Part shown: piece by piece, positions 1 to 14,009 of the stretch
Position numbering within the stretch: the stretch's first letter is position 1
Layout: every line of letters starts with the position of its first letter
NCBI GenBank assembly: GCA_965372795.1
Contig: CBDVDR010000001.1
Coordinates: 1 to 64,000, forward strand
From: an uncultured bacterium
GTDB taxonomy: Bacteria; Zixibacteria; MSB-5A5; GN15; FEB-12
DNA length: 64,000 nucleotides
Reading direction: 5' to 3'
The notes under the pieces: model-generated
The model's input: the letters and a program-made list of their open reading frames with translations, nothing else
Told to the model about the DNA's origin: nothing
Databases searched by the model: none
Translations under genes and position numbers: made by a program

Positions 1-108
1 AAGGAAAAACAAAAGTAGAATTGATTGATAAAAATGAAAGCGGTATTGTAACTGCTGATGCTGTTAAGTGGATAAAAAGATAATTTTGCGAATAAACTGG
101 AGTCGTTC

Positions 109-1578
109 ATGATTAAACATAATAAAGCATTCAGGGTAATACTATTAATTACGCTGATCACTCTTTTTACATCAATTATACACGCTGAACCATTGACCCT
201 TGAACAGTCATTAGAAATAGCTTTTGCAACCAGTCCAACGATGATTAATGCGGGTTATAATCTTGAAATCAGCGAACGAAATCTTGAGGCGCAAAAAGCA
301 GGTTTTAAATCCCAGTTTAATTTGACAATAACGCCTTATAGTCTAACTAAAGACGAGGTTTTTGATGATCGTTTTTCTGATTACATCACTCAGGAACAAA
401 CCAGATCGTCTACTCAATTTTCAATAATGCAGCCTATCAAATGGACCGATGGAACCTTGTCCCTAACAGAGCAGCTTATCTGGCGGGATGCTTCAAGTTC
501 ATTACCCAATTCTTTAAATGAAAGCTCTTACTATAATTCACTGACACTCAGATTCAGCCAGCCTTTGTTTACTTATAACCGATCAATGATGACCCTTCAA
601 GAGCTTGAGTTGTCCCTTGAGAATGCCCGTTTGAATTATGCCTTGCAGAAGTTACAGATCGAAAGCCAGGTAACCCGTGATTTTTTGAATTTGTATCATC
701 AACAGATGTCAGTTAAGATATCAGAAGAAGAAAAAAATAATTCTCAGGAAAGTTTTGATATTATAGTAAGTAAAGTTGAAGCGGGTATCTCGGCCTCGGA
801 AGAGCTTTATCAAGCCGAGCTTACTTTAGCCAATAACATTGCATCACTAGATAATTCTAAAATGCAATATGAAAATTCTCTGGATAACTTTAAAATACTT
901 TTAGGCATTCCCTTAGCAGAAGAACTTTCGGTAGTTTCTGATATAAAGAAAAATATTATCGAGGTTGACTATAATAGAGCAATTGAACATGGTTTGACCC
1001 ATAGAATGGAATTGCGCCAAAAGGATATTCAAATTCAGGAATCAATCAATAATCTGGTTCGGGCAGGTTCTCAAAATGAGTTTAAGGCTTCGATAGATTT
1101 GTCATACGGACTTACCGGGACGGATAAAGAGTTTGGGGAGGTTTTCAGTTCTACCAACAAAAATCAATCAGTAGCCATTACGTTGAATATACCGGTATTT
1201 GACTGGGGTCAGAAAAGACATCGGATAAAAGCAAGCGAGCTTCAATTAAAGAGCAGTCGGCTTTCAGCCAGTGAAGAGAAAAAACAAATACAGCTTCAGA
1301 TCAGACAATCATATCGTAATCTTCTGAATGAAAGAACTCAGATTGATATAGCCGAAAAAAATATTAAAAATGCCCGCTTAACTTATGAAATAAATTTAGA
1401 GCGGTATCGAAACGGTGATTTATCATCCAAAGATATTAGCTTTTATCAAAATCAGCTTTCCCGTGAACAGCTTAATGAAGTGGCAACCCTTATCAGTTAT
1501 CAGCTTGCCTTACTTGATTTAAAAATACGAACCCTTTGGGATTTCAGTAATAACCAATCGGTTATAGAATATAATTAG
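109..1578 (+). CDS. TolC-family outer membrane efflux channel
   Basis: 489 aa with a signal peptide and two OEP-like helical/beta repeats (LTLEQSLEIA..., LNIPVFDWGQ, YEINLERYRNG); GGAG RBS upstream; first gene of an MFP/RND operon. Confidence 0.9.
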   Translation: MIKHNKAFRVILLITLITLFTSIIHAEPLTLEQSLEIAFATSPTMINAGYNLEISERNLEAQKAGFKSQFNLTITPYSLTKDEVFDDRFSDYITQEQTRSSTQFSIMQPIKWTDGTLSLTEQLIWRDASSSLPNSLNESSYYNSLTLRFSQPLFTYNRSMMTLQELELSLENARLNYALQKLQIESQVTRDFLNLYHQQMSVKISEEEKNNSQESFDIIVSKVEAGISASEELYQAELTLANNIASLDNSKMQYENSLDNFKILLGIPLAEELSVVSDIKKNIIEVDYNRAIEHGLTHRMELRQKDIQIQESINNLVRAGSQNEFKASIDLSYGLTGTDKEFGEVFSSTNKNQSVAITLNIPVFDWGQKRHRIKASELQLKSSRLSASEEKKQIQLQIRQSYRNLLNERTQIDIAEKNIKNARLTYEINLERYRNGDLSSKDISFYQNQLSREQLNEVATLISYQLALLDLKIRTLWDFSNNQSVIEYN

Positions 1579-1588
1579 GAGTTTTCAA

Positions 1589-2647
1589 ATGAAAAAACTT
1601 TCAGCAATATTATCGACTTTAATTTTTTCGGTGCTAATCATCGGTTGTGATGATGACGGACCTGATATTGATCTTGAGTCGTCTATCCCGGTTCGAGTTG
1701 AGGCGGTAACTCAAAAGCCGATCAAGGAATATACTTTTGCAACGGGGACAGCCCAGGCAATGAATGAATCCAACTTTAATTCGTTTCAATCGGGATTGTA
1801 CCAAGTTCAAGTCAACGCCCGAACAGGAACACCCTTTACAATGGGCGACAGTGTTGAAATCGGTGATGTGATTGTCAAATTGGAAAATCCTGAATTTGAA
1901 AATCAGATATCGATTAAGTCTAAAAGTCTTAATTATGACATTTCGAAACGAGAGTTTGAAAAGCAAAAGAAGTTGTTTGAAAAAGGCGGTATCACGCTGC
2001 GCGAGTTAACCGATGCGGAGCGAAATTATATAGATTCAAAATACGCTTTGGAGAATGCCTCGCTGCAACTGGCTAAACTAACGGCTATTGCAACCTTTGG
2101 CGGTATAATCGTTGACCTGCCCTTTTACAGTGAAAATCAGCTTCTCAGTGCAGGCACACACTTAGTCAGTTTTATGGATTATTCAAAAATGGTAATTGAT
2201 ATTACGCTTCCCGGAAAAGAGATGGGTCGAATTCATAAAAATCAAAAAGCTTTTATCACCAATTATAATAATGCCACTGATACATTAGATGCAATAATTA
2301 CACAGGTCTCCCCTACCTTGAATCCGGAGACTAGAATGTTTAAGGCTTCTTTAGAAATTGATAACAGCTCATTAAATTTCCGTCCCGGGATGTTTGTCAA
2401 GGTTGACATAATAGTAGATTCGAAAGATTCCACGCTGGTTATTCGAAAAGATGTCGTTCAACAACGACGTGGCGAAAAAACCGTTTATATAGTTGATAAA
2501 GGTGTTGCTCTTGAGCGAGTTATTGAAACAGGTCTTGAAAATAACGAAGAGATTGAAATTCTCAGCGGACTTGAAGCTGATGATCGGCTGGTTATTGAGG
2601 GATTTGAAACGCTCCGTCATCGTTCAAAAGTTAGAGTTTCAAAATAA
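1589..2647 (+). CDS. RND efflux periplasmic adaptor (membrane fusion protein), probable lipoprotein
   Basis: 352 aa; lipobox LIIGC; lipoyl, hairpin and beta-barrel motifs (FRPGMFVKV, ETGLENNEEIEILSGL...LVIEG); 10 bp after tolC-like gene. Confidence 0.9.
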   Translation: MKKLSAILSTLIFSVLIIGCDDDGPDIDLESSIPVRVEAVTQKPIKEYTFATGTAQAMNESNFNSFQSGLYQVQVNARTGTPFTMGDSVEIGDVIVKLENPEFENQISIKSKSLNYDISKREFEKQKKLFEKGGITLRELTDAERNYIDSKYALENASLQLAKLTAIATFGGIIVDLPFYSENQLLSAGTHLVSFMDYSKMVIDITLPGKEMGRIHKNQKAFITNYNNATDTLDAIITQVSPTLNPETRMFKASLEIDNSSLNFRPGMFVKVDIIVDSKDSTLVIRKDVVQQRRGEKTVYIVDKGVALERVIETGLENNEEIEILSGLEADDRLVIEGFETLRHRSKVRVSK

Positions 2648-2666
2648 ATCCTGATAGGAAAAACTA

Positions 2667-5600
2667 ATGTACAAATTTGCACAATTCTCTGTCAGGTACC
2701 CTACTACGGTAGTAATGGTTGTTTTAGCAATCCTCCTGCTCGGATATATTTCGTTCACAAGATTAGGGGTTGATCTTCTGCCTGATCTCAACAACCCAAG
2801 ACTGTTTGTTGAAATTGAAGCGGGTGAACGTCCGCCTGAGGAGATGGAGAATCTATTTGTTGAGCAGATGGAATCGGTAGCAGCCCGGGGCAGGAAAGTT
2901 GTCAATGTTTCCTCTATTTCAAGAGTCGGTAAAGCTCAAATAGCAGTTGAGTACAGCTGGGATGCTGACATGGATGAATCGTTTCTCGATTTGCAAAAAG
3001 CGGTAGCGGATTTTTCACAAAACAGCGATGCCGATAAAGTCAGGGTCAGTCAGTACGACCCGAATGCTATGCCGATTGTTGTGGCGGTGCTCTCGCATCC
3101 TGAAATAACTGATCTCAACGAACTTAGAAAGACCGCAGAAAATAATATCCGCAACGAGTTGATTCGTTTACCGGGGGTCGCTTCGGCAGAACTTGTCGGT
3201 CAAAGGGAACGTGAGATTGAAATTAAAACCGACCCTTACACGCTTGAGGCTTATGGCATAACCATTGAACAGATTGCCAATGCAATTCAAAGCAATAATC
3301 GCAATGTCAGCGGCGGTTCATTGGTGGAGATGGGGACACGTTATGTAATCAGAGGGGTTGGTGAATTTGGAAACCTTGATGATTTAGAAAATTTGATTAT
3401 AACTTATAAATCACCCGGAGTAAATCAACAGGAGTCTTATAAACGCTCGCCGGTTTATTTAAGAGAAGTAGCAGAAGTTAATTTTGTTTTAAGTGAAGCC
3501 GAAAATATTGTACGTTTGAACGGCAAACGAGCTTTAGCAATTGAAATTTTCAAAGAAGCCCGTTTTAACACTATTGATGCCTCTCAGGCTGTCAATGAAC
3601 AGCTTCGTAAAATACAAAAATCTTTACCCGGCTATAAAATCCAGATAATAAAAGATCAAGCCTCTTTTATTCGTTCATCTGTTGAAGAAGTCGAACAGAC
3701 CGGATTGATCGGAATTCTTTTAGCGGTGTTGGTTCTGTTTGTATTCTTAAGACGTATCGGGGTTACGGCAGTGATTAGTTTTGCCATTCCTATTTCAATT
3801 GTTGCAACATTTAATCTTATGTTTTTTAACGGGTTGACCCTCAACATAATGACGCTGGGAGGGCTGGCTCTGGGAGCCGGGATGTTGGTCGACAATGCGA
3901 TTGTGGTGGTTGAAAATATATTTCGTCATTTGGAGAGCGGAAAACCGATTTCAGAAGCGGCCGTGCTTGGCGTTGGTGAAGTAGGCGGTGCAATCACCAG
4001 TTCAACATTGACGACAATCATTGTTTTCCTGCCGATAGTTTATCTTCATGGCGCCGCCGGGGAGCTTTTTAAAGAGCAGGCCTGGACAGTGGCGTTTTCT
4101 TTGATTTCCTCACTCTTTGTGGCGCTGTTTGTTATTCCGATGCTGGCTTCAAAATTTCTAAAAAAGAAACAACAACAGGTTAATCCAAAAAGTTTATCAT
4201 TCCCGGGATATAAAAAGCTGTTAAGTTTTACTTTATCCAAAAGAAAAACAGTAATTCTGGGCAGCATAATTTTAGTAATTATTACTATCTTAGCCATTCC
4301 ATTTGTCGGCAGTGAGTTTATGCCGGCGGCTGATCAGGCAGACATATATATAGAGATCACTCTTCCGGAAGGCACCTCGCTTGAGCGTACCGAAGGGGTG
4401 ATAAAAAATATAGAGACACAAATATCTCAAAACTTTGGAGAATATATATCAGATATTTTTTCCAAAGTTGGTCCCGGCGGAGCATCGACTGATGAACTTG
4501 ATGCCTTGAAAGATGAGAACAACGCTGTCATTCATTTGAATTTGCAAACTGACAGTAAAATTTCAATTGGAACTCTTGCCGGCGGGTTAGACGAAATCAT
4601 TTCTGATATACCGGATGCCGAGACAAAGTTGATTTTACAACAGACAGCCCTTCAAATGACATTGGGTACAACTTCCGCTCCGGTCGCTATTGAAGTCAAA
4701 GGTGAAAATCTTGATGAACTCCAAAAACTGTGCGATTCAATAATTGCACGCATCTCCCCTATTGAAGAGCTGGCGAATATTGAGTCGAGTTTTCAAAAAG
4801 GGCGTCCGGAAATAAATATTGAGATAGATCATACGGTTGCTTCCCAGTTTTCACTTGATGCTTCAACAATCGGTACAACGGTGCGGGATCTTTTATCCGG
4901 ACGTGATGCCGGACAGATGGAATATCAGGGTGATTATTCAGATCTCGTTTTGAGGCGGGCGGATATGTCAATTAGTGAGCTTGAAAGAATTCTGATAGAG
5001 ACTAACACCGGACAACGAGTCCGGCTTGATGAAGTAGCCCGGCTGACTTTTTCAAATTCACCAAGAGAAATTATTCGCAACAATCAGTCTCGAATCGGAC
5101 GGGTAACATCCCAAATCATCAGCGATAAATCGTTTGATAAAATTTCCGGCAAGGTCAAAGCTGCAATCGCCGGCTTAATTTTACCGGCAGAATATTCACT
5201 ATCAATAACAGGCGAAGAGAAATTACGCGAAGAAGCTTTTGGGAATTTAAAATTTGCCCTGTTATTATCTTTAATTTTAGTATACATGGTAATGGCAGCT
5301 CAATTTGAATCGTTGCTTCATCCCTTTGTAATTCTTTTATCTGTACCACTGGCAGGGGTCGGAACTGTTTTACTTCTGCTTATTATGGGGATGCCTTTTA
5401 ATATAATGTCATTTATCGGGATTATCATGCTTGGCGGAATTGCAGTCAACGATTCGATTATCCTTGTAGATCGAATCAACCAGAACCGCCGATCCGGCTC
5501 TAATTTGAATGATGCGATAGTGGCTGCCGGTTCAAGTCGGATCCGGCCGATTATTATGACATCGGCAACGACTATTTTAGCTTTGCTTCCTTTAACATTT

Positions 5601-5753
5601 GGATTCGGTGAAGGAGCATCCCTGCGGGCACCTATGGCGGTGGCTGTTATCGGTGGATTGGTCAGCTCGACCTTTTTAACATTAATTGTTATTCCATCGG
5701 TGTATCATCTATTAGCAGGTCACAAAGAAATCAGAACGGAGTTTGATAAGTAG
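2667..5753 (+). CDS. RND permease, AcrB/AcrD/AcrF family
   Basis: 1028 aa; TM4 GMLVDNAIVVVENI, TM10 GIAVNDSIILVD, TM11 RIRPIIMTS; two periplasmic porter loops. Confidence 0.93.
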   Translation: MYKFAQFSVRYPTTVVMVVLAILLLGYISFTRLGVDLLPDLNNPRLFVEIEAGERPPEEMENLFVEQMESVAARGRKVVNVSSISRVGKAQIAVEYSWDADMDESFLDLQKAVADFSQNSDADKVRVSQYDPNAMPIVVAVLSHPEITDLNELRKTAENNIRNELIRLPGVASAELVGQREREIEIKTDPYTLEAYGITIEQIANAIQSNNRNVSGGSLVEMGTRYVIRGVGEFGNLDDLENLIITYKSPGVNQQESYKRSPVYLREVAEVNFVLSEAENIVRLNGKRALAIEIFKEARFNTIDASQAVNEQLRKIQKSLPGYKIQIIKDQASFIRSSVEEVEQTGLIGILLAVLVLFVFLRRIGVTAVISFAIPISIVATFNLMFFNGLTLNIMTLGGLALGAGMLVDNAIVVVENIFRHLESGKPISEAAVLGVGEVGGAITSSTLTTIIVFLPIVYLHGAAGELFKEQAWTVAFSLISSLFVALFVIPMLASKFLKKKQQQVNPKSLSFPGYKKLLSFTLSKRKTVILGSIILVIITILAIPFVGSEFMPAADQADIYIEITLPEGTSLERTEGVIKNIETQISQNFGEYISDIFSKVGPGGASTDELDALKDENNAVIHLNLQTDSKISIGTLAGGLDEIISDIPDAETKLILQQTALQMTLGTTSAPVAIEVKGENLDELQKLCDSIIARISPIEELANIESSFQKGRPEINIEIDHTVASQFSLDASTIGTTVRDLLSGRDAGQMEYQGDYSDLVLRRADMSISELERILIETNTGQRVRLDEVARLTFSNSPREIIRNNQSRIGRVTSQIISDKSFDKISGKVKAAIAGLILPAEYSLSITGEEKLREEAFGNLKFALLLSLILVYMVMAAQFESLLHPFVILLSVPLAGVGTVLLLLIMGMPFNIMSFIGIIMLGGIAVNDSIILVDRINQNRRSGSNLNDAIVAAGSSRIRPIIMTSATTILALLPLTFGFGEGASLRAPMAVAVIGGLVSSTFLTLIVIPSVYHLLAGHKEIRTEFDK

Positions 5754-5758
5754 TAAGC

Positions 5759-8700
5759 ATGGTAAAGTTTTTTATTAAAAGACCTGTTCTGGTCGGGATG
5801 TTGATTACCGGATTCTGTTTACTCGGGATAATCTCATATTCACAACTACCGGTCGAATTGATTCCATTTACCGAACTCCCCATGCTCATAGTTCATGTCG
5901 GCACAGCCCGTGATGCTACCCCTGAGTATCTTGAAAACAACGCAGTGATAAAGCTTGAAGGCGCTATCGCTTCATTAGAAAATATTGAACGGATAGAATC
6001 GAACATTGATCGGCGGCGGGGTATAATTTTTGTTTATTATAACCAAAAAGCTAATATAAAATATGAGTATTTGAAACTTCAGGAAAAAGTAAATCAGGTT
6101 CAAATCGAATTCGGTCAGGATTTTTTTGCGGCAGTATGGAAAGTTGACTCGGAACAACTATCGAATATGTTTATGAGCCTTCAGGCTCGCGGAACAGGAA
6201 GTCTGGACCAGATCAGAGAAGTCATCGACAAAAAGGTTACCAGGGATCTTGAAAATATAGACGGCGTTTCAAATGTAGAAATATATGGCGGGAAACAGCG
6301 GTCGGTTGAGGTGCTGCTTGATGATCAGACACTAAAAGCATACAATCTGACCCCTAATCAGGTTTCATCTGCTATTTCAAAAGAGAGCAGTAATCGCCAA
6401 TTTTTGGGTCAGGTTACCGAGGGTAACAGGCAGTATTTTGTAAACCTGATATCGGGCTATTCTTCCTTAAGCAATATTGAGAATGTGATAATTAAACCAG
6501 ATGGTCCTCTTTATTTAAAAGATATTGCAGAGATAGTCGAAGGCGGGTCGGATGAAACTTCCATCTCCCGCATTAACGGAATGGAATCAATTTCCATTAC
6601 CCTGATTCGCGACCAGCAATCGAATCTTCTTAGTCTGTCACATGAGACCAGAGATATTATTAAATCTTTAAATGAAAAGATAGCTTCGGATGGAGTCGAA
6701 TTAATAATCCAGAATGATGCCGCTGAAATTATAGAAGATAACATTGATACAATAAAAATGCTCGCCTTGATAGGCGGAATTCTTGCAATAATAATTCTCT
6801 GGATATTTTTGAAAAATTTACCGATGGTGCTCACCGTCGCAGCCTCGATACCTATTTCAATTTTGATCTCGATGAATTTCTTTTATGCCTTTGATATCTC
6901 AATTAATACTTTGACTCTGGTCGGGATTGCGATAGCGATTGGTATGCTTTTGGATAACAGCATCGTTGTCCTTGAAAATATTCATCGAAAACTTGCTCTT
7001 GGGAAAAGTAAATATGATTCTGTGGTTGACGGAACCAGTGAAGTTATCAGAGCCGTATCGGCATCTACTTTGACAACTGTTTGTGTGTTTTTGCCGTTTG
7101 TATTTTCTGAAAACTTCCTTATCCAAACAATGGGTCGTCATGTGGGTGTATCAATAATATCAACTCTGTTGGTATCTTTGGTTGTCGCCTTTTTATTGAT
7201 CCCTGTTTTTGCTTATCGCTTCCTGTTAAGTTCATCCGGAGCCAATGTTCATAATTTTAATATAATTTCCCAGAAAAACCGTTTGCAGCAGATCTATACC
7301 CTGCTGTTAAAATCCTGCCTTCGCTTCCCCGCCCGAACGGTCCTGCTTGGGATAACTGCCTTTTTTGTCAGTATAATAATCAGCCTTGCCCTTAGTATTA
7401 ATATCAGCGAAGAAGTCGAGACCGAGACATTTCAGATGTACGCCACGATGCCTTCCGGCACAACCCTCAAGTCTTCAGATGAGCAAGTCATTTTGATGGA
7501 TGAACGTCTATTAGAAATAGCAGAACTTGACGATCGCACGGCAAATATTCAGGAAGATAATATAGTTTTCTCGTTTAAATTAAAAGAGGATTATGACGAA
7601 ATTGATAAGCGGGATTTACCAGAGATCAAAGATGATATTCTTGAAAAACTGAACAATGGATTTCCGCGAGTAGATTTTTCTTATGAACAACCGGCAACAA
7701 ACTCCCGTTTTCGCGGTAGAGCCGGCGGAGGGTTTGGCGGCAGAGCTTTCCAACGATTATTAGGGATTGGCGAAAGCGAAGAAAAAGTTGTTATTAAGGG
7801 AAGTAACCTTGCTGTCCTTCGTAATATTGCCGATGACATCGAATTTAATATTGGAAACCTTGTGACGATTAGATCGGTTGACGTTTCTGTTTCAGATCAG
7901 CAACCGGGGATTGATCTGATAATTGATAAATTGGTTATGGGTTATTACAATGTTTCAAACAATGCGTTAATCAGCGAACTGGGTAGTTTCCAAAATGAAT
8001 CATCCACCGGAGTGAACCTAATACAAGGTTCGGATAAAATAAGTATCATTCTAAAAAATGATGATTTGGAAGAGAAAGACAGCGATGATTTAAAAGAATT
8101 ACAAATTCCTTCAAATTCAGGTGGCACCGTTCCGCTGACCCAGCTTGCATCACTGGTATATAATACCGGCTATTCCAATATCAATCGTGTTAATCAGGAA
8201 AAACAGGTTGAAGTTATTTATAAATTTGTCGCCGATGTTAATGAATCTAAAGAACTGCTTGATAATGCCCGTCTTGAAGTTGACCAAATTGCCGCAACTA
8301 TTACTCCTCCGGCTGGCGTGGCAATTGAAGTTGTTCACGATGAGACTGATTATTCTGAATTCTATTTTCTAATTGCAGCTTCGATTGTTCTAATATTTAT
8401 GATCCTTGCATCGGTTTTCGAATCACTTATAACGCCGCTGGTAATGATGTTTACAATTCCGCTGGCAACTATAGGTGCGTTTTGGGGATTAATCCTGACC
8501 GGCAATTCAATTTTGAATGCTAACGCCCTGATTGGATTATTGATCCTGCTTGGGGTTGTTGTAAATAATGGGATTATTTATATCGACTATTCAAGATTCC
8601 TAAGGAAAAAAGGTTATCGTCCTTCGCGAGCGTTGATTGCCGCCGGACAAGCGAGAGTGCGACCGATTTTGATAACTGCTATTACTACGGTACTGGCTAT

Positions 8701-10468
8701 GCTGCCGCTTGCGATGGGTAAAGCAGAATATGTCGCTCAAATCGGAGCACCTTTTGCAATCACAGTAATTGGAGGATTAAGTTTTGGAACTTTGTTTACA
8801 TTGATATTAGTTCCAACTGTTTCTTTTGGAATGAACAATGCTTTGAAATGGTGGCACGACCTTTCATGGAAATTAAAAGTTTTACAAGGGCTCGGTTTTC
8901 TTGGTGGAACTATACTGATTTATTTTAATGTCGAAGCGGTATTGTGGCAATTTGTTAATGTTACAGCCCTGCTCTCAATAATACCATCACTTGTGTATTT
9001 TGTTCAGGTTTCCCTTAGAAGGTCACGATCAGATATTATTCCAGCCAACAGCCCAATAAAAATAAATATCAGAAATCTGGTAAAGAAATATGACGATTTT
9101 TCCAGATTTACAAGAGAGTGGAATAAAGCTGAACGACAGAAACAAAGTAAATTTGGCAAAGTCAAAGATGCTGAAACGGATTCAGCTTCAAATATTTATT
9201 GGCATCTTCCGTTATATTTTTTCCATTACTATTTTGTATTCATTTATCTTGAAGGAAATTTCTGGAACATATTACTTAGCGTATCATTTTTCATATACTC
9301 TTTGAAAATTATCTCCATGATACGGGTGCAAATTTCAAAACTGTCTAAAAAATACCTGAATAAATTAATGTCGATCGTTAATATATTATTTTTCTGGTTC
9401 TTCCCTTTGGGATTTTTGATATGGCATAATATGCGCACAGAGAATCTGACAGTTACAATCCTGCTTAGCCTGCTCTGGTATCCAGCGATTCTAATTTATC
9501 ATGGTTCAAAAAAATTGTATCGTGAAAAAATTGACATCAACCGTCTGAAGGGTCGATTCAAATGGATACGAAAAAACTTCTATCGGTTAGTTAAAACTAT
9601 CCCGATCATTGGGAAAAAGAAAATTCCTTTCTCGGCTCTGAATCAGGTCTCTTTAGAGATCGGCAACGGGATGTATGGTTTGATTGGTCCCAACGGCGCC
9701 GGCAAAACTACCTTGATGAGAGTTATTTGCGGTGTGCTCGAACAAAGTCGGGGAAAAATTACAATTAACGATATGGATATTAATGAGTATCGTGAAGAAC
9801 TTCAGGCTTTAATCGGATATCTTCCACAGGAATTCGGCACCTATGAAAACATGACCGCTTATGAATTCCTTGATTATCAGGCCTTACTCAAAGGCAATAC
9901 CGACAGTGTTAAACGGGCAGAAATTGTAAACAAAGCGATACAATCAGTTCATCTGATGGAAAATCAAAATAATAAGATTAAAACATTTTCCGGAGGTATG
10001 AAACAAAGGGTCGGTATTGCTCAAACATTGCTGCATCTTCCGAGAATTCTGGTTGTTGATGAACCTACAGCCGGATTGGATCCTAAGGAACGAATCCGAT
10101 TTAGAAATCTTCTTTCAGAGTTGTCACGAAACCGTATTGTAATTTTCTCAACTCATATTATTGAAGATATTTCCAGCTCTTGCAACAAACTTGCGGTCCT
10201 TGATGATGGGAAAGTAAAATTCACCGGAAGTCCGCAGGAAATGGTGGAACTGGCTAAGGGCGTTGTATGGCAGATGAAAGTCAGTGAAGAAAAGTTCGAA
10301 GAGTTGCGATCAAAATATCGAGTAGTGCATCATATAAGCGAACATAACGAAATCCGGGTTAGATTGATATCAAACATCAAACCATCTGATGATGCAATTC
10401 CGGTCAACCCGTCACTTGAAGATTCTTACTTATGGCTTTTAGATCAAAAGGAAGCCGATCATGCATAA
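5759..10468 (+). CDS. RND permease fused to extra TM helices and a C-terminal ABC ATPase domain
   Basis: 1569-aa uninterrupted ORF. Residues ~1-1025 are RND (GMLLDNSIVVLENI, RVRPILITA). The C-terminus has Walker A GPNGAGKTT, Q-loop YLPQ, signature FSGGMKQR, Walker B ILVVDEPT and H-loop STH. Confidence 0.9.
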   Translation: MVKFFIKRPVLVGMLITGFCLLGIISYSQLPVELIPFTELPMLIVHVGTARDATPEYLENNAVIKLEGAIASLENIERIESNIDRRRGIIFVYYNQKANIKYEYLKLQEKVNQVQIEFGQDFFAAVWKVDSEQLSNMFMSLQARGTGSLDQIREVIDKKVTRDLENIDGVSNVEIYGGKQRSVEVLLDDQTLKAYNLTPNQVSSAISKESSNRQFLGQVTEGNRQYFVNLISGYSSLSNIENVIIKPDGPLYLKDIAEIVEGGSDETSISRINGMESISITLIRDQQSNLLSLSHETRDIIKSLNEKIASDGVELIIQNDAAEIIEDNIDTIKMLALIGGILAIIILWIFLKNLPMVLTVAASIPISILISMNFFYAFDISINTLTLVGIAIAIGMLLDNSIVVLENIHRKLALGKSKYDSVVDGTSEVIRAVSASTLTTVCVFLPFVFSENFLIQTMGRHVGVSIISTLLVSLVVAFLLIPVFAYRFLLSSSGANVHNFNIISQKNRLQQIYTLLLKSCLRFPARTVLLGITAFFVSIIISLALSINISEEVETETFQMYATMPSGTTLKSSDEQVILMDERLLEIAELDDRTANIQEDNIVFSFKLKEDYDEIDKRDLPEIKDDILEKLNNGFPRVDFSYEQPATNSRFRGRAGGGFGGRAFQRLLGIGESEEKVVIKGSNLAVLRNIADDIEFNIGNLVTIRSVDVSVSDQQPGIDLIIDKLVMGYYNVSNNALISELGSFQNESSTGVNLIQGSDKISIILKNDDLEEKDSDDLKELQIPSNSGGTVPLTQLASLVYNTGYSNINRVNQEKQVEVIYKFVADVNESKELLDNARLEVDQIAATITPPAGVAIEVVHDETDYSEFYFLIAASIVLIFMILASVFESLITPLVMMFTIPLATIGAFWGLILTGNSILNANALIGLLILLGVVVNNGIIYIDYSRFLRKKGYRPSRALIAAGQARVRPILITAITTVLAMLPLAMGKAEYVAQIGAPFAITVIGGLSFGTLFTLILVPTVSFGMNNALKWWHDLSWKLKVLQGLGFLGGTILIYFNVEAVLWQFVNVTALLSIIPSLVYFVQVSLRRSRSDIIPANSPIKINIRNLVKKYDDFSRFTREWNKAERQKQSKFGKVKDAETDSASNIYWHLPLYFFHYYFVFIYLEGNFWNILLSVSFFIYSLKIISMIRVQISKLSKKYLNKLMSIVNILFFWFFPLGFLIWHNMRTENLTVTILLSLLWYPAILIYHGSKKLYREKIDINRLKGRFKWIRKNFYRLVKTIPIIGKKKIPFSALNQVSLEIGNGMYGLIGPNGAGKTTLMRVICGVLEQSRGKITINDMDINEYREELQALIGYLPQEFGTYENMTAYEFLDYQALLKGNTDSVKRAEIVNKAIQSVHLMENQNNKIKTFSGGMKQRVGIAQTLLHLPRILVVDEPTAGLDPKERIRFRNLLSELSRNRIVIFSTHIIEDISSSCNKLAVLDDGKVKFTGSPQEMVELAKGVVWQMKVSEEKFEELRSKYRVVHHISEHNEIRVRLISNIKPSDDAIPVNPSLEDSYLWLLDQKEADHA

Positions 10469-11186
10469 CAGTTCCACAAGCAGAATTTCTTATTTAAAAA
10501 GTATGTATGCTTTTTTCAAATACAATGCCTCAAATATTTTTGCAGGTAAATTTGTTTATTTTCTATCTTTTTCAATTTTACTCTTTTTAACCATTGTTAT
10601 CATTTACTCTGTTGATGAAAATGCGCCACCCTCACCTGAGAATATTTATTATTTTCTATTATTCCCGGCGGTTCTTCTGGTCTTTTATCCCTCAACTTAT
10701 AATATCCAGAGTGATGTCGATTCTCGAATGATTGAGACTCTGTTTGGCATACCAGACTATCGTTATAAGGTGTGGCTGGCAAGGAATATCACCCAGCAAT
10801 TTATAATTGTGTTTATAATGTTTGGGCTTTCGTTGTTTTGCTATTTTGCCATGGCTGATTTTTCGGTCTGGGAGATGACGATTCAAATTATGTTTCCACT
10901 TTTATTTTTGAGCAGCCTGGCTTTTATGTTATCGACTATAACCAGAAGCGGAAATGCTACGGCTGTGATAATGGTAATTTTGAATCTGTTTTTTATGATT
11001 GCCGATGAAATTCTGGAGGGTACCCGGTGGAATTTGTACCTAAATCCTTTTAGTGAAGTGGAAGCATTTGAAGTCTTTCTTCAGATAGAGACCATGATGT
11101 ATAATCGGATTTATATTGTTGTGGCATCTATTCTGTTTATGATGATAGCCATGTTACGTCTTCAAAAACGAGAAAAATTCATTTAA
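10461..11186 (+). CDS. Integral membrane protein, ABC-2-type permease-like (about 6 TM)
   Basis: 241 aa, about 6 hydrophobic segments with a cytoplasmic coupling-loop-like segment (DVDSRMIETLFGIP); overlaps the RND-ABC fusion gene by 8 bp. Confidence 0.65.
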   Translation: MHNSSTSRISYLKSMYAFFKYNASNIFAGKFVYFLSFSILLFLTIVIIYSVDENAPPSPENIYYFLLFPAVLLVFYPSTYNIQSDVDSRMIETLFGIPDYRYKVWLARNITQQFIIVFIMFGLSLFCYFAMADFSVWEMTIQIMFPLLFLSSLAFMLSTITRSGNATAVIMVILNLFFMIADEILEGTRWNLYLNPFSEVEAFEVFLQIETMMYNRIYIVVASILFMMIAMLRLQKREKFI

Positions 11187-11397: not shown

Positions 11398-12351
11398 ATG
11401 AAACGACGAGATTTTATAAAGCAAACAGGTAAAGCCGTTGCTCTTGCCGCAGTAACCGGTGGCACCGGATATTTATTTCATAATCGAGAGTCGACCACCT
11501 ATACCCCGGTTCTGACAAAGTTAAATGATTTTAAAGTTCCCAATAATCCGGCCCTGCCACAGATAACCCTTGCAAAACATATTGATCCTGTTAACGCCCT
11601 TAATTTTTCACTTGATGCTATCGGTGGTATCAAAAGATTTATAAAGCCAAATGAGACGGTTACTATAAAACCAAATATCGGCTGGGATCGCACTCCCGAG
11701 CAGGCTGCCAACACCAATCCGATTCTGGTGGCAGAAATGGTCAGGTTGTGTTATGAAGCCGGTGCTGCTGAAGTTATAGTTACTGATGTAACCTGTAATG
11801 ATCCTCGTCGTTGTTTTTTACGATCAGGGATCAAAGAACAGGCTGAGAAAATGGGCGCTAAATTAATTCTTCCGGTTGAAGAAGATTATGTAAAGGTTAA
11901 TCTCAGAGGGAAAATACTTACTGAATGGCCGGTATTAAAATATTTTGTAAATACTGACCGCTTGATAAATATGCCGATTATCAAACATCATTCTCTTTCA
12001 AGCTGCACTCTGGGAATGAAAAATCTATATGGGATTCTTGGTGGACGACGCAATCAATTACATCAACAAATTGACCAATCAATAGTTGATCTGGCTGCTT
12101 TCACTCAACCTACACTGACAGTAATTGACGGCACCCGAGTGTTGTTGCGGGGCGGTCCTCAGGGAGGTTCTTTAGATGATGTTGCAGAAGAAAATACGGT
12201 AATTTGCGCAACCGACCAGGTTGCCGGGGATGCGCGCGCTGCGGAATTTCTTGGTTTAAAAGCTGATCAGGTCAGCCATATAGTTCTTGCCGATAAAAGC
12301 AAACTTGGGAATCTTGACTACAAAATTTCAGGATATAAAGAAATCATCTGA
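11398..12351 (+). CDS. DUF362 domain protein with Tat signal peptide
   Basis: MKRRDFIK twin-arginine signal; motifs IKPNIGWDR, ANTNP, INMPIIKHH, TLGMKNLYG. Confidence 0.8.
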   Translation: MKRRDFIKQTGKAVALAAVTGGTGYLFHNRESTTYTPVLTKLNDFKVPNNPALPQITLAKHIDPVNALNFSLDAIGGIKRFIKPNETVTIKPNIGWDRTPEQAANTNPILVAEMVRLCYEAGAAEVIVTDVTCNDPRRCFLRSGIKEQAEKMGAKLILPVEEDYVKVNLRGKILTEWPVLKYFVNTDRLINMPIIKHHSLSSCTLGMKNLYGILGGRRNQLHQQIDQSIVDLAAFTQPTLTVIDGTRVLLRGGPQGGSLDDVAEENTVICATDQVAGDARAAEFLGLKADQVSHIVLADKSKLGNLDYKISGYKEII

Positions 12352-14009
12352 TGACAATCAAAACGGTCAGAAATCTTCGGCGTATATCACAGATTTTATT
12401 TTTTGGGATCTTTTTCTGGTTAATTTTAAAAACAAATTTTGAAGTAAATTTTAGTCCGGATGACAGCTCTGATATTTTACTGCCCTATCCGGTTTCAATA
12501 TTTCTTAAGTTTGATCCTTTGGCAGCCATTGCTATTCTTTTAGCTTCCGGAACGGTCTACAAAGGATTGCTCTGGTCGCTGGTTATTTTAGTACCAACGA
12601 TTTTTATGGGAAGATTTTTTTGTGGCTGGGTTTGTCCAATGGGGACAATGAATCATTTTATATCTGAAATCGGTTCTGAGAGAAACTCACGTAAAGGGAT
12701 TCAAAAAATTGAATCAAACAGGTATAAAAAATACCAAAGGATAAAATATTATATTCTGTTTATTTTTCTTGGCGCATCTTTCGCCGGCACCCTTCAAATC
12801 GGACTTTTGGATCCGCTACCATTGCTGGCAAGATCGATTGGAACATTTATTTTACCCTTAACCCATACGGCAGCCATTGAGACCCTGTCCTGGTTTAAAG
12901 ATTTCGGAATTCCCCCAATAATCATTCCCGCTCAAATAGTTTTTGATATCATCGCATTTTTGATTTTACCGTTTAAACAAGCCCATTTTAATACCATCTT
13001 CAGTATCGGGTTTATATTTATATTAATTATGTTCCTTAACCGAGTATTTACCCGATTCTGGTGCCGCGGAATTTGTCCTCTGGGTGCGTTACTGGGAGTT
13101 TTTTCAAGATACTCGATTTTCGGATTACAAAAGGATGCCGGTTCATGTGATCATTGCAATCAATGTCTTATCTCCTGCCAGGGCGCCGATAACCCCGAGA
13201 TTGGATCTACCTGGAGACAAACCGAATGTCACCTTTGTTTGAATTGTCAGGCGTCATGTCCACAGGGATCATTGTCGTTTAGATTTTTTCCCAAACAAGA
13301 AAATACTCCGCAAAACCCGGGTTTGATTCCGACGGTTGATATTACCAAACGCAAATTTACCGCCTCGCTTGCAGGCGGATTGGCAATGTATCCTCTTTTA
13401 AGATCGGGGATTGATTTTGAATCTAAAGCTAATCCATTGTTGATCCGTCCTCCCGGTTCGGTTGACGAAGAGACCTTTCTTGAAAGATGTATAAGATGCG
13501 GACAATGCATGCGGGTCTGCCCTAATAACGCCTTGCATCCAACTCTTCTTGAATCCGGAGTTGAAGGAATTTGGACTCCAATACTGATTCCCAAAGTTGG
13601 CTACTGCGAGCCTACTTGTACTCTTTGTACACAGATTTGCCCTACCGGGGCAATTTTGGAACTGACCCAGAAAGAAAAGATTGGCGACAAAAACAGTCCG
13701 GCTAATGTAATAGGTACAGCATTTATAGATCAGGGCCGGTGTCTCCCCTGGTCAATGGCAATCCCTTGTATTGTCTGTGAAGAATGGTGCCCAACTTCTC
13801 CAAAAGCTATTTACCTGAAAGATGAAATTGTAATCAATCGTCAGGGACAAGAGATAGCCGTTAAACGCCCCTTTATTGATCCAGCCGAGTGTACCGGCTG
13901 CGGAGCTTGCGAATTTGCCTGTCCGGTAAATGATAAACCAGCGGTTTATATAACTTCAGTTGGGGAATCAAGATCCGAAAACAATCAAATTCTGCTTAAA
14001 AGCAAATAG
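12351..14009 (+). CDS. Membrane polyferredoxin (NapH/MauN-like membrane domain plus NapF/MauM-like 4Fe-4S domain)
   Basis: GRFFCGWVCPMG and RFWCRGICPLG motifs; several CxxCxxCxxxCP clusters; IRPPG motif; TGATG overlap with the upstream stop codon. Confidence 0.88.
   Translation: MTIKTVRNLRRISQILFFGIFFWLILKTNFEVNFSPDDSSDILLPYPVSIFLKFDPLAAIAILLASGTVYKGLLWSLVILVPTIFMGRFFCGWVCPMGTMNHFISEIGSERNSRKGIQKIESNRYKKYQRIKYYILFIFLGASFAGTLQIGLLDPLPLLARSIGTFILPLTHTAAIETLSWFKDFGIPPIIIPAQIVFDIIAFLILPFKQAHFNTIFSIGFIFILIMFLNRVFTRFWCRGICPLGALLGVFSRYSIFGLQKDAGSCDHCNQCLISCQGADNPEIGSTWRQTECHLCLNCQASCPQGSLSFRFFPKQENTPQNPGLIPTVDITKRKFTASLAGGLAMYPLLRSGIDFESKANPLLIRPPGSVDEETFLERCIRCGQCMRVCPNNALHPTLLESGVEGIWTPILIPKVGYCEPTCTLCTQICPTGAILELTQKEKIGDKNSPANVIGTAFIDQGRCLPWSMAIPCIVCEEWCPTSPKAIYLKDEIVINRQGQEIAVKRPFIDPAECTGCGACEFACPVNDKPAVYITSVGESRSENNQILLKSK

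Follow-up and report, generated by a model that had tools for sequence, protein, structure and literature searches.

Pumps of the resistance-nodulation-division (RND) type are ion-driven trimers and ATP-binding cassette (ABC) exporters are ATP-driven dimers, and the two are taught as separate machines. RND pumps collect their substrates from the periplasmic side, and the export of substrates from the cytoplasm or the inner leaflet is usually explained by loose cooperation of separate transporters. The RND protein MmpL7 and the ABC-2 transporter DrrABC are both needed for one mycobacterial lipid export route. Here we analyze the first 64 kb of contig C1 (CBDVDR010000001.1, positions 1 to 64,000; "the window") from the genome of an uncultured bacterium of the Zixibacteria (GCA_965372795.1), which encodes an RND permease and an ABC ATPase as a single polypeptide of 1569 amino acids (aa). 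This fusion belongs to a cassette of seven genes, which encode, in order, a stand-alone ABC ATPase (nucleotide-binding domain A, NBD-A), a large ABC-2-type permease, a TolC-like outer-membrane factor, a periplasmic adaptor, a plain RND permease (RND1), the fusion itself (RND2-linker-NBD-B) and a 241-aa membrane protein (G5).

The cassette shares features with several described systems. Like MdtABC-TolC and MuxABC, it has two adjacent RND paralogue genes behind one adaptor gene, together with an outer-membrane channel, and MdtB (9lyq_B) is the best or second-best solved match to two transmembrane (TM) pieces of RND2 (E = 3.1e-18 and 1.7e-25). HAE-1 pumps are rarely heterotrimers, with MdtBC as the cited case, according to the review PMC8277102. 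The cassette differs from MdtABC in that its RND proteins score far below the equivalog cut-offs (RND2, 257.2 bits against 1584 for MdtB; RND1, 389.9 bits against 1774 for MdtC) and do not keep the Asp-Asp/Lys proton relay, six additional helices and an ATPase are attached to one paralogue, and the cassette also encodes an ABC exporter. Both RND proteins also fell short of the 1250-bit cut-off of RND_permease_2 (NF033617; RND2, 442.2 bits; RND1, 625.3 bits). NosDFY and other type V exporters resemble the ABC components: NosY is the best fold match to G5, NosF is among the best Foldseek matches to the fused ATPase, and the C-terminal domain is of the TM_1403 type. In contrast to the type V exporters ABCA, ABCG, Wzm-Wzt and PmtCD, however, G5 has no ABC-2 Pfam match, one ATPase is fused to an RND protein and has its first strand split off by four membrane helices, and the two membrane subunits are unlike (241 and ~1130 aa). 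MmpL7 and DrrABC occur as distinct proteins, and their bacterium lacks a channel of the TolC type, whereas the cassette has one polypeptide in a tripartite pump. In MacAB-TolC, too, an ABC ATPase acts across the envelope together with an adaptor and a channel of the TolC type, and the ATPase domain of MacB (5lj6) aligns to the fused ATPase (Z 26.4, 218 residues, root-mean-square deviation [rmsd] 1.8), but MacB carries a four-helix permease of its own, which includes a periplasmic domain, and works without an RND partner; the best folds for G5 are those of type V transporters and LptF/G, and the MacB membrane domain is absent among the rows listed. None of these systems joins RND and ABC in one chain. 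The first-pass annotation of this DNA knew of no characterized pump that does so, and indeed we found no description of an RND-ABC fusion in the full-text literature searched, outside which lie subscription journals and supplementary files, or in the accessible part of PMC8277102.

The fused gene is one open reading frame (ORF) without a stop, in which the Pfam family ACR_tran covers residues 1-1020 (513.6 bits, cut-off 28) and ABC_tran covers residues 1294-1438 (103 bits, cut-off 25). Thus, ORF and Pfam agree with the first-pass description of an uninterrupted gene with a full RND body and an ABC domain. That annotation had further proposed a search for other proteins with both domains, and had named a stop or frameshift between the two parts in close relatives as evidence against a genuine fusion. 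We searched for homologues with residues 1020-1569 as the query, limiting the search to proteins of similar total length. The 3980 proteins found at E ≤ 0.001 include unrelated long ABC-domain proteins, and we did not use that figure. Among the matches listed, both PF00873 and PF00005 were present in 120 of 120 homologues, which were 49-60% identical over the query region (the window protein itself, at 100%, is among the 120). Most of them (112) are 1500-1700 aa long; the other eight are shorter, and two of these are named 'partial' by a source. By their source names, they come from Zixibacteria, Gemmatimonadota, Aminicenantes, KSB1 and Latescibacteria.

Genomes were searched with the linker alone (residues 1020-1290). 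We found it in 17 of 285 genomes of the same phylum, distributed over 14 of 130 genera, and none of the 17 matches had an internal stop; 14 lie within open frames of 1565-1690 aa, and the remaining three lie on short contigs or extend to the limit of the sequence fetched. In a second phylum, the linker was present in 4 of 301 sampled genomes, again free of stops and within frames of 1450-1591 aa. The other genome searched from the genus of the source, rated 100% complete, showed neither the linker nor G5, which suggests that the cassette as a whole was gained or lost recently; the cassette is therefore accessory and patchily distributed. G5 was found in 18 of the 285 genomes, namely all 17 in which the linker is present and one more that is 79% complete.

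We also looked for the two parts in separate genes. A profile of the linker matched 135 representatives, among which the full-length ones were all 1550-1590 aa long with the linker at about residues 1020-1295, while the remainder resemble fragments that start or end within the linker; no clear unfused form was found by this search. A search for shorter, unfused forms gave one match among 3422 candidates, a 666-aa 'partial' protein that still has both domains. Two representatives, P0281 (526 aa) and P0354 (501 aa), start inside the linker and have a full ATPase; they may be stand-alone linker-ATPase proteins or truncated gene calls. A motif-based scan of the genome collection was set aside: its 80 loci were ordinary ABC ATPases whose match was confined to the ATPase part, and they were useless for synteny, and in the five genomes reached via these loci, to which this result is confined, the linker was found in none. 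We conclude that the fusion is real, conserved and under selection, and is not an artefact.

The region that joins the two parts is covered by an AlphaFold2 model of the stretch from residue 1020 to 1569, built from a 41-row alignment and with a mean predicted local distance difference test (pLDDT) score of 79.6. In this model, two helices (1037-1086) are followed by a beta-strand (1102-1111), a poorly modelled loop, four helices (1144-1255) and the ATPase; these six helices, in groups of two and four, account for the roughly six extra TM segments counted previously. According to the model, the strand is beta1 of the ATPase, and both beta1 and the A-loop residue Tyr1111 are in their normal place, with the four membrane helices inserted before beta2, since solved ATPase chains align across the insertion: residue 1-2 of these chains aligned to model residue 79-83, and the insertion was skipped. 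One example is MJ0796 (3tif_A; Z 26.9, 218 of 230 residues aligned, rmsd 1.8); the NBD fold of the model is also matched by TM_1403 (4yer_B; Z 28.1, 265 aligned, rmsd 3.8). The segment with the detached strand, IKINIRNLVKKY, also aligns with residues 1-12 of NBD-A; this match is weak alone (E 0.5) but colinear with the main alignment, which starts from NBD-A residue 18. The fused ATPase is therefore not the contiguous domain usual for an ABC ATPase, as beta1 lies ~180 residues before beta2 with four helices in between. The regulatory insertion of CFTR NBD1 is likewise located between beta1 and beta2, but it is short and soluble, whereas the insertion described here has ~180 residues and four membrane helices. 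The C-terminus of RND permeases is cytoplasmic; with even numbers of helices (two, then four) after it, beta1 and the rest of the ATPase would both be cytoplasmic.

This region is highly conserved. Tyr1111 is invariant in 41 of 41 and 19 of 19 sequences, and 26 columns of the linker are invariant in the alignment of 19 sequences, which spans two phyla. All of the ATPase motifs were found in NBD-B, as had been noted from the letters alone: Walker A (1310-1317), the Q-loop (1355-1358), the signature FSGGMKQR (1410-1417), Walker B with the catalytic Glu (1430-1436) and the H-loop (1464-1467). None of these motifs varies among the 41 aligned family members.

Since the assembly breaks within the large permease gene, two genes of the operon are hidden from the window (Table 1). 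The reverse strand of C2, the adjoining contig of the same genome, ends in ...GWNYIGTYRISE, with Glu as its end codon, and frame 3 of the window carries on with GKTKVEL...WIKR and a stop. The two pieces are colinear with the C-termini of five orthologues with no residues missing, and the contig ends share the bases AA. Thus, C1 and C2 evidently abut inside this gene, a join that rests on protein colinearity and the two-base overlap. NBD-A in the source genome is 67-73% identical to the copies in relatives, in which the outer-membrane factor is always preceded by an ABC ATPase of 300-321 aa and a membrane protein of 1121-1173 aa.

Table 1. Features of the cassette and of the fused gene (positions in the window unless contig C2 is given)
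Feature	Position	Strand	Basis
Stand-alone ABC ATPase (NBD-A), precedes large permease gene	contig C2:3297-4208	-	
Large ABC-2-type permease, rest of gene	contig C2:1-3303	-	Runs off contig end
Large ABC-2-type permease, 3' end: last 26 codons and stop	3..83	+	Frame 3
TolC-like outer-membrane factor, 489 aa	109..1578	+	Pfam OEP, 146.4 bits
Periplasmic adaptor (membrane fusion protein), 352 aa	1589..2647	+	NCBIfam RND_mfp, 156.2 bits (cut-off 94.9); Pfam HlyD_D23, HlyD_3
RND1, plain RND permease, 1028 aa	2667..5753	+	Pfam ACR_tran, 724.8 bits, residues 4-1016
RND2-linker-NBD-B fusion, 1569 aa, single open frame	5759..10468	+	ORF, Pfam, homologues
RND body of fusion, residues 1-1020	5759..8818	+	ACR_tran profile positions 1-1015 of 1021
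Two-helix membrane hairpin after RND TM12, residues 1037-1086	8867..9016	+	Model helices 18-38, 42-67; hydropathy peak 1061-1086
Detached ATPase beta1 and A-loop Tyr, residues 1100-1111, IKINIRNLVKKY	9056..9091	+	
Four-helix membrane insertion between beta1 and beta2, residues 1144-1255	9188..9523	+	Model helices 125-144, 148-176, 179-208, 211-236
Rest of NBD-B with C-terminal domain, residues 1291-1564	9629..10450	+	ABC_tran, 103 bits
G5, 241-aa membrane protein, type V (ABC-2-like) membrane domain, predicted NBD-B partner	10461..11186	+	

The first-pass annotation had described an operon of five tightly coupled genes and asked whether their order is conserved. The ORF list bears out the coupling, with all five genes on the + strand, spacings of 10, 19 and 5 bp and then an 8-bp overlap, but the extent of the operon needs correction, as the five window genes are part of a full cassette of seven. 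The order of outer-membrane factor, adaptor, RND1, fusion and G5 is found in 12 of 14 loci of the same phylum, and the remaining two, which are cut by contig ends, retain the same order; in all 14, the start of G5 falls between 23 bp before and 13 bp after the point where the fused gene ends. The upstream ATPase and large permease were present in each of the five loci of this phylum that we extended upstream, and the three loci fetched from the second phylum each have all seven genes in identical order, such that the seven-gene order recurs in 8 of 8 loci examined for upstream genes. Scans for promoters and terminators at both ends of the operon gave counts not clearly above those in shuffled sequences, and the sole terminator-like site at these ends falls inside the next gene.

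NBD-A and NBD-B are 45% identical over 268 residues, C-terminal domain included. Walker A, the Q-loop, Walker B and the H-loop of NBD-A were found in 9 of 9 orthologues, and the search for its signature found LSGGMKRR in seven of the nine and matched an earlier stretch in the other two. Both ATPases are nearest to the DrrA (201 and 158.7 bits) and GldA (180.1 and 172.1 bits) families, all below the cut-offs, with DrrA as the top ATPase family for NBD-A (201 bits). Their structural neighbours are TM_1403, NosF and ABCA (NosF, Foldseek E 9.9e-17 against the fused ATPase).

G5 has no match in Pfam or NCBIfam. We compared a model of G5 (59-row alignment; pLDDT 86.3; predicted template modelling score 0.84) with 48,161 solved chains and found that the nearest structure is NosY (7o0y_D; Z 15.8, 221 aligned, rmsd 3.9), followed by ABCA3/4, ABCH, PmtD, ABCG5/8, Wzm, KpsM, CcmB, LptF/G, TarG and a Mce1 permease chain. 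All 22 rows at Z of at least 8.9 (8.9-15.8) are membrane subunits of ABC transporters, and the next unrelated row is at Z 6.9. As modelled, G5 has the type V ABC membrane-domain fold. Prediction of a complex between G5 and the C-terminal module of the fusion gave a score of 0.69 (runs 0.69, 0.65 and 0.70), compared to 0.00 for the best control; the mark applied to this score was reached by 116 of 157 solved complexes and by 2 of 215 mismatched pairs. At least 84% of contacts were common to the runs, and the partner pLDDT was at least 77. The confident contacts in the prediction connect module residues 302-367 and 403, in the region of the Q-loop and helical subdomain, to G5 residues 7-28, 88-104 and 237-241, of which we read 7-28 as the N-terminal amphipathic helix and 88-104 as the loop between the second and third helices (coupling). 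G5 is thus predicted to dock on NBD-B via its N-terminal and coupling helices.

About seven hydrophobic segments lie within the first 280 residues of the large permease, and the ~820 residues after these 280 end in Golvesin_C, a domain that scored 53.5 bits in an orthologue (above the cut-off) and 24.2 bits in the copy of the source genome (below it). ABC2_membrane_2 matches the N-terminal part in 4 of 9 orthologues (best E 1.9e-7). A profile of the membrane part found nothing below E 0.089 among solved structures. Language-model neighbours of the periplasmic domain, 'xanthan lyase family' and Peptidase_M1, are weak leads only (scores 0.89-0.92).

In AcrB-type pumps, the proton relay consists of two Asp residues in TM4, a Lys in TM10, and an Arg and a Thr in TM11. 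The two RND bodies of the cassette are 30.3% identical, and the hydropathy peaks of RND2 (10-28, 332-484, 529-547 and 868-1025) are colinear with those of RND1; by hydropathy, RND2 has the 12 membrane helices in two blocks and the two large periplasmic loops of an RND protein. Where the solved pumps MdtF (9qpr_C), MdtB (9lyq_B) and 7wlv_A have Asp-Asp in TM4 and Lys-Asn in TM10, RND2 has D399-N400 and Asn-Asn, while the equivalents of the TM4 Asp and of the TM11 Arg and Thr are retained; RND1 has Asp-Asn in TM4 and Asn-Asp in TM10. The Asn-Asn pair of RND2 is found in 14 of 14 copies of the same phylum and 3 of 3 of the second phylum, and is at least 90% conserved in 40 full-length rows. In RND1, TM10 has Asn-Asp in 12 of 13 copies of the same phylum and Asn-Asn in one, and Asn-Asn in all three copies of the second phylum. 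We therefore rejected loss of the TM10 acidic residue specifically in RND2 as a rule for the family, because RND1 also has Asn-Asn in some loci. The source genome encodes six RND paralogues of more than 1000 aa (contigs C1, C6, C8, C14 and C19), among which one has the Asp-Asp/Lys pattern. We note that this paralogue, with Asp-Asp in TM4 and Lys-Asn in TM10, is on C19, and that the paralogue on C14 has Asn-Asp in TM10 like RND1. RND2 also has a Gly/Arg-rich stretch (RFRGRAGGGFGGRAF...) in its periplasmic part (window 7700-7780, approximately residues 648-672), which is also present in the family consensus.

We lean toward the idea that the cassette encodes a heterodimeric ABC-2 exporter that is tethered to one of the two RND paralogues of a tripartite pump and relays substrate to it. 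RND1 and RND2, with one adaptor and one outer-membrane channel, would form the tripartite pump, the RND proteins presumably as a heterotrimer. A type V (ABC-2) exporter would be assembled from two paralogous ATPases and two unlike membrane subunits, with NBD-A pairing with the large permease (~1130 aa, with a large extracytoplasmic domain) and NBD-B pairing with G5; the 45% identity and conserved co-occurrence of the ATPases suggest that they form the A/B heterodimer. NBD-B would be held covalently on RND2 by the conserved six-helix membrane linker, four helices of which lie between beta1 and beta2. The ABC stage might then lift an amphiphilic or membrane-embedded substrate from the cytoplasm or the inner leaflet and deliver it beside the RND stage, which would expel it via the adaptor and channel across the outer membrane. 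The first-pass annotation had offered two ideas in this direction. Its proposal that two fused RND subunits supply an ATPase dimer is unneeded; because the cassette encodes a stand-alone ATPase (45% identical to NBD-B, with all motifs) and a second permease, an A/B heterodimer that needs one fused subunit is the simpler reading. Its alternative of a tethered ABC-2 module fits the type V fold of G5 and the predicted docking of G5 on the fused ATPase.

Several observations weigh against a substrate relay between tethered exporter and pump. Neither RND paralogue, as judged from the aligned residues, keeps the AcrB-type Asp-Asp/Lys relay, so that proton drive of the RND stage has to be assumed. 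A six-helix linker that is threaded into the ATPase fold is beyond the need of a simple tether, which hints at tighter mechanical coupling than a relay would involve. The score of the predicted complex may come from the likeness of its partners to solved type V transporters such as NosDFY, and the prediction had no confident contact between G5 and the linker helices. The source genome's own large permease gave no ABC-2 match, and when profiles of G5 and of this permease's membrane part were compared, no significant similarity emerged (probability 0.3%). Finally, the flanking genes vary among loci and point to no substrate, so that the cassette stands by itself and its surroundings offer no clue to the cargo.

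The same linker and relay results bear on whether ATP drives or gates the RND protein itself. If so, motion of the NBD-A/NBD-B dimer would be passed through the four-helix bundle and the hairpin to TM12 of RND2, such that hydrolysis drives or licenses the RND cycle instead of, or along with, protons. We think this unlikely, but the most credible of the alternatives. In its favor, the linker is conserved and structured, unlike a loose tether, the insertion is located inside the ATPase fold, RND2 has Asp-Asn and Asn-Asn at positions where MdtF, MdtB and 7wlv_A have Asp-Asp and Lys-Asn (with Asn-Asn in 14 of 14 and 3 of 3 copies of the two phyla), RND1 of the second phylum has Asn-Asn as well (3 of 3 loci), and the Asp-Asp/Lys pattern occurs in just one of the six RND paralogues of the source genome. 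On the other hand, RND2 retains the TM4 Asp and the TM11 Arg and Thr equivalents, other RND families run on other relays, and the cassette encodes a complete ABC exporter, in which the ATPase has a conventional role; furthermore, modelling yielded no contacts of the linker helices with anything else, and we know of no precedent for an ATP-driven RND protein. A pump with two energy sources, in which force from ATP is passed mechanically into an RND subunit without the classical Asp-Asp/Lys relay, is an outcome we would not expect.

Another alternative to the favored tethered exporter is a machine that builds the envelope. Such a machine would move the cell's own lipid, glycolipid, lipoprotein or polymer rather than detoxify, with the periplasmic domain of the large permease handling the cargo and the RND proteins acting like lipid-moving RNDs. 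Consistent with this, the nearest ATPase families are DrrA and GldA (below cut-offs), the folds matched by G5 include the lipid and glycan exporters ABCA3/4, ABCG, Wzm, KpsM, TarG and LptF/G, the large permease ends in Golvesin_C, and the 'xanthan lyase family' and Peptidase_M1 neighbours, which are leads only, point the same way. We nonetheless consider an envelope builder quite unlikely, as the patchy distribution (17/285, 4/301, and none in the congener) fits an accessory function better than a core pathway, and no biosynthetic genes are conserved beside the cassette. A fusion that serves co-assembly only, placing two independent pumps together without substrate hand-over or energetic coupling, is also conceivable, in that gene fusions can fix stoichiometry and the computed results reveal no shared substrate path. 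However, the seven-gene order is kept across two phyla, the fusion is present in 17 of 18 G5-bearing genomes, the linker is strongly conserved and the 135 linker-profile representatives include no clear unfused form, all of which make mere co-assembly very unlikely. That two genes were joined by sequencing error, as an assembly artefact or a pseudogene, is scarcely credible: it is refuted by conservation, with the same stop-free frame in independent assemblies (120/120 listed proteins, 17/17 and 4/4 genomes).

Two further sets of genes lie near the cassette. Downstream, at window 11398-14009 on the + strand, two genes that overlap by one base encode a protein of the DUF362 family (158.4 bits) and another of 552 aa in which several 4Fe-4S ferredoxin motifs occur; since this pair is not beside the cassette in other loci, it is probably unrelated. 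On the other side, C2 4573-8712 (- strand) encodes an 857-aa protein with a weak match to CarboxypepD_reg, a weakly PapD_N-like protein and a weak DUF4402 match, all below the Pfam cut-offs. These genes may be a fimbria-like set, and they are not conserved beside the cassette in relatives.

In this cassette, a peptide bond and a conserved membrane linker connect the RND and ABC classes. The cassette also contains two unannotated protein families, G5 and the large permease, as well as an ABC ATPase that is interrupted by membrane helices. It would offer a natural, stable complex in which to view either the hand-over from an inner-membrane exporter to a tripartite pump or the control of an RND protein by ATP; if the latter, less expected, possibility were true, the cassette would provide the first case of ATP driving or gating an RND transporter.

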